A stretch of DNA of 56,069 nucleotides from Bulleidia sp. (GCA_016293365.1 JAEDEK010000001.1:1-56069), one strand, 5' to 3'. Numbered from the stretch's first letter, positions 10,899-14,329 are shown. The notes: generated by a model from the letters alone, not told the origin. Numbers and translations are program-made.

Positions 10899-10936
10899 GA
10901 CGGGTGTTCCCTGGGTGAAATGGGCATCCGTTTTTC
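10899..10936 (+). terminator. Intrinsic terminator after uvrA
   Basis: GACGGGTGTTC / GGGCATCCGTT stem followed by a T run. Confidence 0.65.
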
Positions 10937-11009
10937 AGATGACTGTAAAAAAGAAATCATGTGATGTTTTGGGATTTACCAGAACATGCGTGAAGGAACA
11001 ACGGTTGCG

Positions 11010-11018
11010 TGGTATAAT
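11010..11018 (+). promoter_or_regulatory. Extended -10 promoter for hprK
   Basis: TGgTATAAT ending 9 nt before ATG 11028; no SD between. Confidence 0.6.
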
Positions 11019-11027
11019 TGTGCCACT

Positions 11028-11999
11028 ATGGAAGACAAACACTACACAAAGAAATGTACAATCCGTGAGATTGTTGATTTTTTCAAATTTGAACAGGTCA
11101 CTGGTGACGAGAGGGCACTGGATCGATGGACTGTTGTATCCGATGTCAACCGTCCAGGCTTTGAACTGTGCGGTTTCAATAAGATAACCGAGCCAAGAAG
11201 AATCGTCATTATTGGAAACAAGGAATCTGAGTTTATTCTCAATAACATGACAGAACAGCAGCAGAGGGAGCGTTTCCCGATGATTACAGATGGTCTTACA
11301 CCATGTGCCATCATCACAAAGGGAAATGAAGTTCCGCCGATTCTGAAAGAGGTCGCACAGCAGTCAAACTTCCCGATTCTGCTGACACATCTGGAAACAT
11401 ACCGCTGCATGACAGACCTGATCACGTTCCTGGATGAAAAGCTTGCACCGGAAGATACGATGAGCGGTGTATTGATGTCCATTCATGGAGTCGGTGTCAT
11501 GCTGACAGGTGAAAGCGGCATGGGTAAGTCCGAAGCTGCGATGGAACTGATCCGTAATGGTAATGTCATCATTTCTGATGACCGTGTGGATGTCATGCGT
11601 GTTCATAACAGCATCATCGGCAAAGCACCTGAAATACTGTACGGACTTCTGGAAATCAGAGGTATCGGTATCATCGATGTCGAAAAGATGTTCGGTGCCA
11701 TGGCAAGTGCCAGACAGGAGGAGCTGAAGCTTGTCATTCATCTTGTTCCATTTGAGCCGGATGCGGAATATAACAGAATCGGCGATGAAACAGTCCGGTA
11801 TACAAGAATTCTGGATGTGTTGATTCCAACGCTTGTTCTGCCTGTATCTGCCGGCAGAAATACAGCAGCTCTGATTGAGAGTGCCGTATCAGAATTCAAG
11901 CTGAAGATGGCAGGATTCAACAGTGCTGAAGAAATCAGACGCCGTTTCTATGAATATACAAAGAAACAGAGTGAAATGAATAAAGGAGACGCTCAATGA
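11028..11999 (+). CDS. hprK: HPr kinase/phosphorylase
   Basis: NRPGFEL N-terminal domain, Walker A GESGMGKSE, DDRVDV, signature LLEIRGIGII, PVSAGRN. Confidence 0.94.
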   Translation: MEDKHYTKKCTIREIVDFFKFEQVTGDERALDRWTVVSDVNRPGFELCGFNKITEPRRIVIIGNKESEFILNNMTEQQQRERFPMITDGLTPCAIITKGNEVPPILKEVAQQSNFPILLTHLETYRCMTDLITFLDEKLAPEDTMSGVLMSIHGVGVMLTGESGMGKSEAAMELIRNGNVIISDDRVDVMRVHNSIIGKAPEILYGLLEIRGIGIIDVEKMFGAMASARQEELKLVIHLVPFEPDAEYNRIGDETVRYTRILDVLIPTLVLPVSAGRNTAALIESAVSEFKLKMAGFNSAEEIRRRFYEYTKKQSEMNKGDAQ

Positions 12000-13342
12000 G
12001 TTTTTTTCCAGATCCATCAACGATTGTAAGTATCGGGGGTGTATCCCTGAAGTGGTCATTACTGACAACTGTACTTGGATGTATTCTTGGATTTCTGATG
12101 ATCTCAAGAAACTTCCGGAAAAACGGATATAAACAGACAACCACGGATGATCTTCTGATCCTCAGCGGAGCTGGCTGTATCATCGGTGGAAGAGCGGTAT
12201 GGGTGGTTGAAAACTGGCATTCCTATTCTCTGTATGCGTGGGGAATTCTTGAATTCAGTGATGGTGGATTTGATTATGCGGGAATTCTGCTTGGAATCCT
12301 GGTGGCGGTCGGATGTTATACATTCACACATCGCATGTCCTATCGAAGAACATGTGATGCGATTCTGCCAGGCGCCATTACAGCCATTGCTTTCTCACGC
12401 ATCGGAAAGATTCCGGAAGCGGAAAACATGTGGATGATTGTTGCCATGGATGCGGTGGTACTGCTGATCCTGTATTTCGGGGTACGTCCATTCCATGAAG
12501 GTAAGCGCAGAGGAGATATGACCTCAGTGGCATTGATGCTGGCGGGAATCGTCCAGCTGATCAGCTGTACATTTCACCTTGATCCATCAACCAATTCCAG
12601 TGTCATCGCACCTAGCCTTGCCATGCTTTCTGGTCTTGGCATGTATCTGGCAACACATTCATTGCCGATTGTAAAGCCGGTCGTTCTGTTTGATTTTGAC
12701 GGAACGTTAATGGACAGTGAATATCTGGTCATTAACGGGTTTGCCTATCTGTTCAAAAAACACAGAACACTGGAAGAATTTACCCGAGAAATCCAAAGGG
12801 AAGTTTTTCTTCATCCTCTTCGAGAAGAACTGGCAAGACTGTTTCCGGAGGAAAATACGGAAGTACTTGCCCGTGAATACAGAAATTATATGAAAGGAAT
12901 TCAGGGAAGACATCTGGTGGAAACGCTACCGCATGTCAGAGAAACCCTGAAGCAGCTGAAGGACTCAGGATATGTCCTGGGGATTGTTACAGGCAGATAT
13001 ACGGATTCGTGTATGATGTGGCTGGAAGATCTTCTGATTGACCAGTACTTCGATATTGTGGCAGGTACGGAAACATACCGTCACACAAAACCTTCTCCTG
13101 ACGGTATTCTGCATACCTGCGAAATGCTGAAGGTGGGACATGATTCTGTTGTCTATGTAGGAGATGGTGTCAAGGATGTACAGGCAGGAAGAAATGCCGG
13201 TGTCTATACAGTTGCCTTTGTTACAAATGAAGATAAGCGAAACGCGCTGGAGAAGGCATCTCCAAATGCTGTGATGAACTCCTTTGATGAACTGCCGGAA
13301 ATCCTTTCCAAGCAGAATGCATGGAGTGCAGATCTTTACTGA
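11996..13342 (+). CDS. Fusion of a degenerate Lgt-like membrane domain and a HAD-family phosphatase (PpaX-like)
   Basis: N-terminal about 225 aa resembles Lgt (IIGGRAVWV, DGG, D...PG......SRIG); C-terminal HAD domain has FDFDGTL, VTGR, KPSPD, GDGVKD; sits at the usual hprK-lgt-ppaX locus. Confidence 0.8.
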   Translation: MSFFPDPSTIVSIGGVSLKWSLLTTVLGCILGFLMISRNFRKNGYKQTTTDDLLILSGAGCIIGGRAVWVVENWHSYSLYAWGILEFSDGGFDYAGILLGILVAVGCYTFTHRMSYRRTCDAILPGAITAIAFSRIGKIPEAENMWMIVAMDAVVLLILYFGVRPFHEGKRRGDMTSVALMLAGIVQLISCTFHLDPSTNSSVIAPSLAMLSGLGMYLATHSLPIVKPVVLFDFDGTLMDSEYLVINGFAYLFKKHRTLEEFTREIQREVFLHPLREELARLFPEENTEVLAREYRNYMKGIQGRHLVETLPHVRETLKQLKDSGYVLGIVTGRYTDSCMMWLEDLLIDQYFDIVAGTETYRHTKPSPDGILHTCEMLKVGHDSVVYVGDGVKDVQAGRNAGVYTVAFVTNEDKRNALEKASPNAVMNSFDELPEILSKQNAWSADLY

Positions 13343-13348
13343 ACAGAC

Positions 13349-13377
13349 AAAAGAGATCTTTCACGGGTCTCTTTTTC
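13349..13377 (+). terminator. Intrinsic terminator after the hprK operon
   Basis: AAAAGAGATCT / GGGTCTCTTTT stem ending in a T run. Confidence 0.7.
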
Positions 13378-13447
13378 TGATATATATTGAATAAGGACAG
13401 GGAAAATATGTTTCCTTATTCATGGAACAAAGGTAAAATAGGGACGG

Positions 13448-14329
13448 GTGATGATGATGGAAAATATGAAACGCGTAATACTTGTAACAGGAATGAGCGG
13501 TGCCGGAAAGAGTACCGCAACAAGAATTCTTGAAGACATGGGATATCATGTCATTGATAATTATCCGGTTCAGCTTGTATCACTGCTTGTTGATATGATT
13601 GAAACAAGCACGGATCCAAGGTATTCCTTTATCGCACTTTCCACTTCTGCACAGGATTTCCCGGAATTTCTGCGGGGACTCAAGGGACAGAACATATCCG
13701 TATCTGTCATGTTCCTGGATGCGGCGGACTCTGTTCTTCTGCACCGCTATAAGAGTACAAGAAGAACCCATCCTCTTCTGTTGAGCAATACATGCAACAC
13801 ACTGGATGAGGCGATTTCTGTGGAACGTCAGATGTTTACATCCGCAATCAACAGCTCCTTTATCACCATTGATACATCCTTTCTGAGTGAAAAGGAATTC
13901 AAGAAAAAGATTGAACAGATGTTCTCGAGGAATTCCGTTCCTTCTTTTTCCATTTCCTTTGAATCATTCGGTTATAAATACGGCGTGCCGATGGATGCGG
14001 ATCTGATGGTGGATGTCAGATTTCTTCCGAACCCGTTCTGGGAAATTACATTGCGTCCATACAACGGAAATGATGCCTGCGTATATGACTACGTCATGGA
14101 AAAACCTGAAACAAAGGAATTCCTGAAAAGACTTTCTTCTTTCCTGGACTATGCTTTTGAGCAGTATGCCAATGAAGGAAAGAATCATTTTACTGTAGCG
14201 ATCGGTTGCACAGGTGGTCAGCATCGATCCGTCTCCATTACAAACTGGCTGTATGACCACTATAAAAACAGTTACAACTGTTATAAGCAGCATAGAGAAG
14301 AAAAGATGTGGATAAGAGATGAAGCATAA
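13448..14329 (+). CDS. rapZ: RapZ/YvcJ-family nucleotide-binding protein
   Basis: VTGMSGAGKS, TRRTHPL, SFGYKYG, DVRFLPNPFW, IGCTGGQHRSV; exact start uncertain (GTG 13448 or an ATG between 13451 and 13466). Confidence 0.93.
   Translation: MMMMENMKRVILVTGMSGAGKSTATRILEDMGYHVIDNYPVQLVSLLVDMIETSTDPRYSFIALSTSAQDFPEFLRGLKGQNISVSVMFLDAADSVLLHRYKSTRRTHPLLLSNTCNTLDEAISVERQMFTSAINSSFITIDTSFLSEKEFKKKIEQMFSRNSVPSFSISFESFGYKYGVPMDADLMVDVRFLPNPFWEITLRPYNGNDACVYDYVMEKPETKEFLKRLSSFLDYAFEQYANEGKNHFTVAIGCTGGQHRSVSITNWLYDHYKNSYNCYKQHREEKMWIRDEA

Follow-up and report, generated by a model that had tools for sequence, protein, structure and literature searches.

A probable pseudo-Lgt membrane module fused to a PpaX-like HAD phosphatase downstream of hprK in Bulleidia sp.

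The window analysed here, a stretch of 56,069 nucleotides from Bulleidia sp. (GCA_016293365.1 JAEDEK010000001.1:1-56069), carries directly behind hprK, the gene for HPr kinase/phosphorylase (HprK/P), a single open reading frame (ORF) in which sequences related to the prolipoprotein diacylglyceryl transferase Lgt are joined to a phosphatase domain of the HAD superfamily (Table 1). An initial annotation, made from the sequence alone, had described this 448-residue ORF and its overlap with the hprK stop codon, and had read the motifs WSL, GGFDYAGI and SRIGKIPEAENMW in its Lgt-like half; the ORF and all three readings were recovered in the translation, and the observation of an Lgt/HAD fusion was confirmed as being far beyond chance.

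The fusion gene and its two domains

The ATG of the fusion ORF (11996-11998) shares bases with the TGA of hprK (11997-11999), and this ATGA overlap, with an AAGGAG sequence spaced 7 nt 5′ of the ATG, suggests that the two genes are translationally coupled. A promoter and terminator scan returned no terminator-like site between hprK and the fusion ORF and no signal above shuffle expectation that is relevant to the latter. The gene order mutS-uvrA-hprK-fusion-rapZ-yvcK-whiA is also found in one genome of the same genus; among the ORFs of the window, neither yvoD nor yvoF stands beside the fusion. Antisense ORFs, e.g. the one at 12104-12331 on the minus strand, fall within the conserved coding frame of the fusion.

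Table 1. Features of the hprK-fusion locus, in coordinates of the window.
Feature	Position	Strand	Basis
hprK (HPr kinase/phosphorylase), 337 residues	10986..11999	+	ORF; Hpr_kinase_C 187.5 bits, Hpr_kinase_N 102.6 bits
Ribosome-binding site AAGGAG (11983-11988) and ATG (11996-11998)	11983..11998	+	sequence
Fusion ORF, 448 residues, ATG start, stop included: putative pseudo-Lgt membrane domain and HAD-IA phosphatase	11996..13342	+	ORF call, Pfam, NCBIfam
Lgt-derived domain, residues 1-228	11996..12679	+	Pfam, structure model, Foldseek, alignments
Short loop between transmembrane helices 4 and 5, residues 137-144, GKIPEAEN	12404..12427	+	alignment; site of a 31-residue deletion relative to intact fused Lgt
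HAD-IA phosphatase domain, PpaX-like, residues 229-441	12680..13318	+	HAD_2, PpaX model, four motifs
Conserved C-terminal tail, residues 442-448, plus stop codon	13319..13342	+	alignment of short and long forms
rapZ (yvcJ) homologue, next gene downstream	13448..14329	+	ORF, profile match

The N-terminal half is homologous to Lgt, although the homology covers only part of the family profile. Residues 10-137 match positions 3-129 of the 240 positions of Pfam LGT (PF01790) with 54.9 bits (E 1e-14, cut-off 24.9), while the curated NCBIfam model for lgt (TIGR00544) reaches 52.8 bits against a cut-off of 118.9, i.e. there is no full-length match above a curated cut-off. A phmmer match to Escherichia coli Lgt (5azb, E 4.5e-7) spans residues 7-146 of the query and ends at chain residue 154. 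By comparison, the intact fused relative from Holdemania filiformis (L022) aligns to 5azb residues 13-285 (E 1.2e-25).

An AlphaFold2 model of the whole protein, computed from a 30-row alignment (predicted local distance difference test, pLDDT, 86.1; predicted template modelling score 0.76), consists of a short N-terminal β stretch or hairpin, seven helices and a HAD fold. The helices, predicted to be transmembrane (TM), comprise residues 20-42, 47-72, 94-112, 116-136, 145-162, 174-193 and 204-222. When the N-terminal domain was modelled alone (pLDDT 81.9), 5azb was the sole Foldseek match at E ≤ 0.001 (E 6.3e-8, query-normalised TM-score 0.66), and the predicted structure has the seven-TM fold of Lgt. 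The model of the whole protein returned HAD structures only, among the matches listed, and the match to Lgt needed the separate model of the N-terminal domain. Pfam, the sequence match to 5azb and Foldseek agree with the assignment of this half to Lgt in the initial annotation. E. coli Lgt has an N-out/C-in topology. As the lysines and arginines between the predicted helices, seven on the inside and two on the outside, show a charge bias in agreement with this topology, the HAD domain is predicted to be cytoplasmic; in the model, the lost residues and the deleted loop described below lie on the extracytoplasmic face.

Residue equivalents were derived from residue-level alignments to 5azb and to intact fused relatives; native E. 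coli numbering is, we assume, one below the 5azb chain index. We take Y26, R143, N146, E151, G154, R239 and E243 to be the residues that mutagenesis has marked as catalytic or essential in E. coli Lgt, with R143 and R239 being the arginines that bind phosphate. The status of H103, which the initial annotation had counted among the essential residues, is disputed. This catalytic set is not retained in the window protein, which has S21 for Y26, A95 for H103, K138 for N146, M147 for G154, A183 for Y235, Q187 for R239 and C191 for E243; R143 is retained as R135, and E143 stands at the position of E151 in an ambiguous part of the alignment. Across 30 aligned proteins of the short length class to which the window protein belongs (see below), the N146 position is occupied by arginine or lysine in 30/30, G154, H103, Y235 and E243 are each retained in 0/30, and Y26 is retained in 23/30. 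The (nearly) invariant positions of the Lgt-derived domain in these short forms are R66, D89-G-G91, S115, D121 and R172-G-D174, with R135 present in 26 of the 30.

Furthermore, the alignment has a gap of 31 columns after residue 143, present in all ten short-form rows displayed, where intact relatives have a loop with PTFLYES, corresponding to HPSQLYE, at its end. Of this extracytoplasmic loop behind TM4, only residues 137-144 remain in the window protein, and the TM4-TM5 loop region carries SRIGKIPEAENMW, a remnant of the GRxGNFxNxExxG motif. The replacement of key Lgt residues, the absence of the HPSQLYE region and the loss of the late Y..R..E motif (A183, Q187, C191), all proposed in the initial annotation, were thus found again in the alignments to 5azb, to the intact relatives and of the 30 short forms. 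The Lgt-derived domain is probably catalytically dead.

The C-terminal half matches Pfam HAD_2 (PF13419) over residues 230-407 with 144.5 bits (E 4.8e-42, cut-off 23.8) and exceeds the cut-off of the HAD-IA model TIGR01549 (50.3 against 23.3 bits). The four HAD motifs that had been reported for it are present as D233/D235 (DFDGT), T332, K365 and D390/D394 (GDGVKD), and these positions are invariant in the 30 short forms or, at 332, either serine or threonine. Solved HAD phosphatases match the whole-protein model with TM-scores of 0.83-0.85 relative to the target. No sign of inactivation is visible in the motifs or the structural matches, and the HAD domain is probably active.

The best NCBIfam model for this domain is PpaX (NF009804; 128.9-131.2 bits, profile positions 5-214 of 215), of which the fusion is also the best match in its genome; the score lies below the equivalog cut-off of 218. 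The gene also stands where ppaX does, behind lgt sequences within the hprK operon (ATGA overlap, same order in relatives). The PpaX match ends at residue 441, and the tail beyond it is conserved across both length classes, with W443 invariant in 30/30 short forms and a tryptophan in most long forms (EWTYN-like). By profiles and motifs, the window protein is a bona fide member of the HAD-IA phosphatase family, and neither a functional member of the Lgt family nor an NCBI PpaX equivalog.

Fusion states and a standalone Lgt across the family

We examined 151 genomes of the window's family (Erysipelotrichaceae by record titles) in a survey that gave profile scores and frame lengths, while motifs were read separately in long-form alignments and at named loci. 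An LGT match is present in 150/151 genomes, and in 124/151 one frame of 477-529 residues holds both a full-profile LGT match (≥194 bits) and the HAD match. Considering these frames, and that the motifs are kept in the long forms checked, an intact Lgt-HAD fusion appears to be the normal state of the family. In the displayed alignment, 9/9 long rows keep WYA, GGLAI[QH]G, GRWGN[FY]xNQExxG, P[TM]F[LF][YFW]ES and Y..R...E, and 10/10 short rows lack these motifs. At the loci of named genomes, GRxGNF and GGxxx[HQY]G are present in 27/27 long forms, 11 short forms (438-460 residues) have none of the three motif patterns, and eight loci encode a HAD protein alone (213-224 residues).

A protein search returned 51 clusters with both LGT and HAD domains, which fall into two length classes. 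The short class comprises 27 clusters of 447-449 residues and one of 437 (32-99% identity to the query); the long class comprises about 22 clusters of 476-486 residues, or truncated (26-33% identity). The initial annotation had left it to be seen whether the fusion is conserved; it is, across protein clusters, named loci and the genomes G114, G141, G077 and G134. The sources name such fusions either 'prolipoprotein diacylglyceryl transferase [Erysipelotrichaceae bacterium]' or 'HAD-IA family hydrolase', and we flag these names as annotation errors. One further protein, P0026 (293 residues, on a contig of 1005 bases), is 92% identical to the HAD domain of the window and also matches a transposase (PF00872); it may come from a close relative with an insertion sequence element in its membrane-domain portion, or be a gene call cut short.

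The initial annotation had also predicted another lgt elsewhere in the genome and had suggested a search for lspA. Both genes are present in the window's genome (G000): lspA on contig C6, and on contig C167 (744-1523) a standalone Lgt of 259 residues (L001) that matches LGT profile positions 3-238 with 181.8 bits. This protein retains Y26, R143, G154, Y235, R239 and E243. Its GRIGC..AGCC.G motif (GRIGCF.AGCC.G subtype) occurs in 120/120 of its close homologues, and proteins of its type are the sole LGT-family match in genomes of the genera g7, g24, g56 and g9; given this strict conservation and sole occurrence, the standalone Lgt is probably active. It is 26-32% identical to the fused Lgt domains of the family. 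A protein search with it returned close kin only, and in a phylum-level sample of 301 genomes, which may exclude Clostridia, the nearest Lgts of other families of the class are 37-38% identical.

With this protein as the query, the standalone type was found in 22/151 family genomes (42-100% identity, frames of 253-303 residues). In 17 of these 22, the fused Lgt is decayed, deleted or not found, and these counts are to be read as a pattern and not as a statistical test because the genomes are related and sampled. The fused Lgt is recognisably degenerate in five genomes (G000, G114, G141, G077, G039); it is represented in three (G008, G147, G090) by a form of 405-409 residues whose N-terminal stretch of about 188 residues is hydrophobic and has no LGT match; it is deleted in three (G042, G044, G116), which leaves a HAD protein of 217-221 residues; and the fused form was not found in six (G006, G088, G146, G023, G102, G056), in which, at E ≤ 1e-10, there is no PpaX-like match (three genomes) or a weak HAD match only (E 2e-15 to 5e-11). 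In the remaining five (G081, G068, G086, G143, G082) the fused Lgt is still intact. The proteins from G008, G147 and G090 (L124, L125 and L126, genus g9), in which the hydrophobic N-terminus precedes the same HAD domain, look like a further stage of decay.

Among the 129 genomes without the standalone type, a short form occurs in G134 only. There, a short form on C39 (L006) and an intact fusion on C66 (L010) each lie beside an hprK of their own. G134, recorded as 82% complete with 1% contamination, is a bin that probably mixes genomes. The HAD domain on C39 of this genome is nearly identical to L012. Two pieces resembling leftovers of an Lgt were seen in genomes whose hprK-linked gene is HAD-only: a frame of 105 residues in G042 (C50:492-680; LGT profile 176-238, 41.8 bits) and a frame of 260 residues in G116 (C163:2961-3560) with a weak full-length LGT match of 30.7 bits.

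Labels of intact, degenerate and HAD-only were fixed from the motifs before a maximum-likelihood tree of the HAD domain was built from 68 rows. The window protein falls in a clade of 15 (14 degenerate, one HAD-only; support 99) whose other members include metagenome-assembled genomes (MAGs) with Solobacterium, Galactobacillus and Lactimicrobium titles. G141 and G077 form a separate pair, and G039 groups with G008, G147 and G090 (support 97) inside a set of otherwise intact forms, Holdemanella and Faecalicoccus among them (98). A single clade for all 31 non-intact rows was rejected by an approximately unbiased (AU) test (Δ log-likelihood 127.7, p 4e-63), which was run after the tree had been seen. 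Considering the separate, supported clades and this rejection, the fused Lgt has decayed at least three times independently. Four of the proteins (L011, L013, L019, L037) come from records that bear the names Duodenibacillus sp., Waltera intestinalis and Eubacterium sp. In the tree they form tight groups with records of Erysipelotrichaceae, and it seems that these 'cleanbin' assemblies were wrongly named or that their bins are mixed.

The decayed domain is nevertheless under purifying selection. The ratio of nonsynonymous to synonymous substitution rates (dN/dS, Nei-Gojobori) in pairs of short forms is 0.045-0.17 for the Lgt-derived domain and 0.036-0.09 for the HAD domain, values that are rough because dS is above 1 for the majority of pairs; L016-L055, the informative pair with the least saturation, gives 0.055 and 0.036, respectively. 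The dN of the N-terminal domain relative to that of the HAD domain is 1.3-1.9 in short forms versus 0.2-1.2 in pairs of intact forms. As estimated from these sequences, constraint on the Lgt-derived domain is about halved relative to its HAD partner and is still strong. Compared with a genome of the same genus, neighbouring genes are 51-75% identical and the fusion protein is 33% identical.

A model for the fusion protein and its alternatives

Combining these findings, we propose, with a probability of roughly 0.75, that the fusion protein consists of a pseudo-Lgt membrane module and an intact PpaX-like HAD phosphatase, and that it descends from a bifunctional fusion made redundant by a standalone Lgt. 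The ancestor would have carried the bifunctional Lgt-PpaX fusion that is standard in the family. With a separate Lgt of the GRIGCF.AGCC.G subtype present, the fused Lgt would have become redundant and would then have decayed in several lineages independently, leaving a dead domain (as here), a hydrophobic domain that can no longer be recognised, or no domain at all. The pseudo-Lgt would be kept by purifying selection as a membrane module that holds the cytoplasm-facing HAD domain, the putative positional counterpart of Bacillus PpaX/YvoE, at the membrane, while diacylglyceryl transfer in this organism would be performed by the standalone Lgt of C167, followed by LspA. The interpretation given in the initial annotation, in which the Lgt half has probably lost its transferase activity and may serve the phosphatase as a membrane anchor or lipid-binding module, is supported; added to it here are the descent from a family-typical intact fusion, the recurrent decay tied to the standalone subtype and the purifying selection.

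Several observations weigh against this model. The call that the fused domain is dead leans on a comparison with E. coli mutagenesis, and the standalone Lgt, with which diacylglyceryl transfer would rest, has cysteines at the N146 and E151 positions and a tyrosine at that of H103. In E. coli Lgt, N146 counts as essential, and the probable activity of the standalone protein is read from its conservation and from its sole occurrence in several genomes (g7, g24, g56). The short forms retain the R143 equivalent in 26/30 and the R239 equivalent in 22/30; because these arginines are mostly kept and dN/dS is well below 1, the Lgt-derived domain may do more than anchor the phosphatase. Membrane tethering is not obligatory, as a soluble HAD protein is encoded next to hprK in G042, of the same genus, and in several MAGs with Solobacterium titles. 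The limits of the family counts and of the dN/dS values, given above, belong here as well.

The least certain part of the model is the substrate, for which pyrophosphate (PPi) released by HprK/P is the best-supported guess, one to which we give slightly less than even odds. PpaX is said, in work by Mijakovic from 2002, to hydrolyse PPi. PMC2937029 relates Mijakovic's proposal that YvoE, encoded in the hprK operon, hydrolyses the PPi formed by HprK/P and thereby stimulates dephosphorylation of P-Ser-HPr. P0053 (534 residues), a single cluster on one contig of 35.9 kb, is a putative direct fusion of HprK to HAD without a membrane domain, and its HprK and HAD parts are 50% and 42% identical to those of the window. 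As the score of the HAD domain stays this far below the PpaX cut-off, its specificity for PPi is only putative, which is a further point against the model.

Alternatively, the Lgt-derived domain might bind a lipid of the phosphatidylglycerol (PG) type and hand over a lipid phosphate, for instance phosphatidylglycerophosphate (PGP), to the HAD domain, so that the protein would be the PGP or lipid-phosphate phosphatase of a PgpP-less lineage and, in lineages without PgpP and PgpA, a new class of such enzymes. This is unlikely, even though the genome contains pgsA (C14:2584-3162, 162.3 bits) while PgpP/YqeG (TIGR01668) was not found in it (best match 24.6 bits, cut-off 89.1), nor over the cut-off in G114 (one contig, 99% complete), G042, G077, G141, G044 and G116, and PgpA (PF04608) was not found in G000, G114, G042, G077, G141 and G044. 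According to PMC11804483, B. subtilis relies on PgpP as its essential PGP phosphatase, and the protein occurs in virtually all Bacilli; its absence from this genus leaves a gap that a tethered HAD could, in principle, fill. The mostly conserved arginines and the purifying selection on the domain would also fit such a role.

Across the family, however, PgpP is over the cut-off in 113/151 genomes, most of which also have the fusion, G039 and genus g9 combine degenerate forms with PgpP, and the PgpP-less genera g4, g15, g17 and g53 include intact fusions. The window protein itself has a glutamine at the R239 position, and the PgpP-less G042, of the same genus, is without the membrane domain entirely. 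Of three PAP2 genes in G000, the one about 1.3 kb downstream of pgsA is an obvious alternative source of PGP phosphatase activity. Moreover, in E. coli Lgt the opening of the lipid site faces the outer leaflet, whereas the prediction places the HAD domain in the cytoplasm. The PAP2 gene at C14:4500-4829, which has one TAA inside its scored frame, is a candidate PGP phosphatase. Two simpler versions were rejected: the HAD domain is not PgpP itself, as none of the five TIGR01668 matches in G000 at E ≤ 0.001 lies at the fusion locus (C117), and no clean anti-correlation of PgpP with the fusion state is seen in the 151 genomes.

That the N-terminal domain instead still works as an Lgt paralogue whose active site has been remodelled, acting on a subset of lipoproteins or with another lipid donor, we regard as very improbable. 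Such a paralogue would agree with the retention of the seven-TM Lgt fold in the Foldseek comparison, with dN/dS of 0.045-0.17, with the R143 equivalent and Y26 kept in 26/30 and 23/30 short forms, respectively, and with the standalone subtype, which shows that N146 and E151 are replaceable by cysteine. It is hard to reconcile with the loss of five conserved positions in 30/30 short forms and deletion of the 31-residue PTFLYES/HPSQLYE-like loop, to which the window protein adds the loss of Y26 and R239, or with an LGT profile match confined to the first half and a TIGR00544 score far below its cut-off. Furthermore, relative constraint is about halved compared with intact forms, some relatives have dropped the domain completely, and no searched genome depends on a short form as its only Lgt; G134, the probable mixed bin, holds an intact fused Lgt in place of the standalone type.

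Still less credible is a role of the HAD domain in dephosphorylating heptaprenylglyceryl phosphate in the pathway of the lipoprotein N-acetylation carrier (PcrB, YvoF, LhaT), which would explain its fusion to Lgt. Recent papers suggest that YvoE might carry out this step, and PMC13068155 states that YvoE may take part in synthesis of the carrier. PcrB (PF01884) was not found in G000, and among the 151 family genomes its matches were all short and partial (about 50-90 profile positions, ≤25.4 bits), none of them full-length. DUF1405 (PF07187), the family to which YpjA/LhaT presumably belongs, was likewise not found in G000, although the B. subtilis control was matched. In B. subtilis, deletion of yvoE is described as leaving lipoprotein acetylation unchanged. 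Because PcrB is missing from G000 and, as a real match, from the 151 genomes, this substrate can be considered practically excluded.

The integrity of the reading frame can be judged from public sequencing runs, of which 20 from 17 studies, including six RNA libraries, contain the stretch. A single DNA contig from run X5, a run that is almost identical and from which this DNA may have come, covers 10900-13500 with 4 substitutions and 0 indels, a contig from run X3 (10900-12938) bridges the domain junction, and contigs from RNA libraries cover 10957-13294 (X15) and 12000-13187 (X16). The fusion ORF is likely transcribed, which falls short of proof since RNA libraries can contain DNA. A frameshift or mis-assembly that joined lgt to ppaX, an artefact the initial annotation had wanted checked, or a decaying pseudogene, as the fragmented assembly (217 contigs, 94% complete) might suggest, is refuted by the same architecture of 445-460 residues in 27 protein clusters, ten named loci and the genomes G114, G141, G077 and G134, by these DNA and RNA-library contigs, which span the ORF or its domains without indels, and by dN/dS well below 1.

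If the unlikely reading of the Lgt-derived domain as a lipid-presenting module were correct, the family-wide Lgt-PpaX fusion would place PpaX/YvoE in the lipoprotein and lipid pathway, instead of or besides the removal of PPi made by HprK/P. Accounts of bacterial lipoprotein maturation present Lgt as an essential enzyme that is uniform and has one domain. Here, a whole family of gut Firmicutes has Lgt fused to a PpaX-type phosphatase of the hprK operon, a type of Lgt in which cysteines occupy two positions regarded as essential in E. coli can apparently take over, and after this takeover the fused Lgt would repeatedly have turned into a conserved pseudo-enzyme domain or been lost. In the main texts of open-access papers and preprints we found no report of a family-wide Lgt-PpaX fusion, of a takeover by a cysteine variant or of recurrent pseudo-Lgt domains. 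The family thus offers a natural series for testing which residues of Lgt matter and what the long-unexplained hprK-lgt-ppaX linkage means. The cysteine variant deserves a study of its own, and the gap in PG synthesis in this genus, with neither PgpP nor PgpA, is a separate lead.

Comparison with known systems

The HAD domain resembles PpaX (YvoE) of B. subtilis in its HAD-IA family and in a coding position immediately behind hprK and lgt sequences, and differs from it in that it is predicted to be membrane-tethered and not soluble, and in a score below the equivalog cut-off. The arrangement of the B. subtilis hprK-lgt operon is described in PMC12345273; unlike hprK-lgt-yvoD-yvoE-yvoF, the fusion described here adjoins neither yvoD nor yvoF. 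PgpP (YqeG), which according to PMC11804483 acts in membrane lipid metabolism, is likewise a cytoplasmic phosphatase of the HAD superfamily, but as a HAD-IIIA protein it belongs to a different subfamily, and most genomes of the family have both PgpP and the fusion.

With E. coli Lgt (5azb/5azc, PF01790), the Lgt-derived domain shares the seven-TM fold, the N-terminal β stretch, the DGG sequence, the R143 equivalent and the RGD sequence. In contrast to that enzyme, it has lost N146, G154, H103, Y235 and E243, and in the window protein also Y26 and R239, it matches the first half of the profile only, and it is followed by a C-terminal HAD domain; unlike E. coli Lgt, it is probably not the working Lgt of its organism.

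The closest comparison is with the intact fusions of Holdemania filiformis DSM 12042 (L022), Holdemanella biformis DSM 3989 (L044) and Faecalicoccus acidiformans DSM 26963 (L057). These have the same domain order, HAD family and C-terminal tryptophan tail, are 26-32% identical over the full length and, where this was checked (L010), intact fusions of this kind occupy the same position after hprK. They differ in their length of 483-502 residues, in retaining GRWGNFxNQEAxG, GGLAI[QH]G, PTFLYES and Y..R...E, and in usually being the sole Lgt of their genome. In the genome studied here, that place would be taken by the standalone Lgt, which belongs to the same Pfam family as the fused domain but covers the full LGT profile, and which presumably does what the fused domain no longer can.

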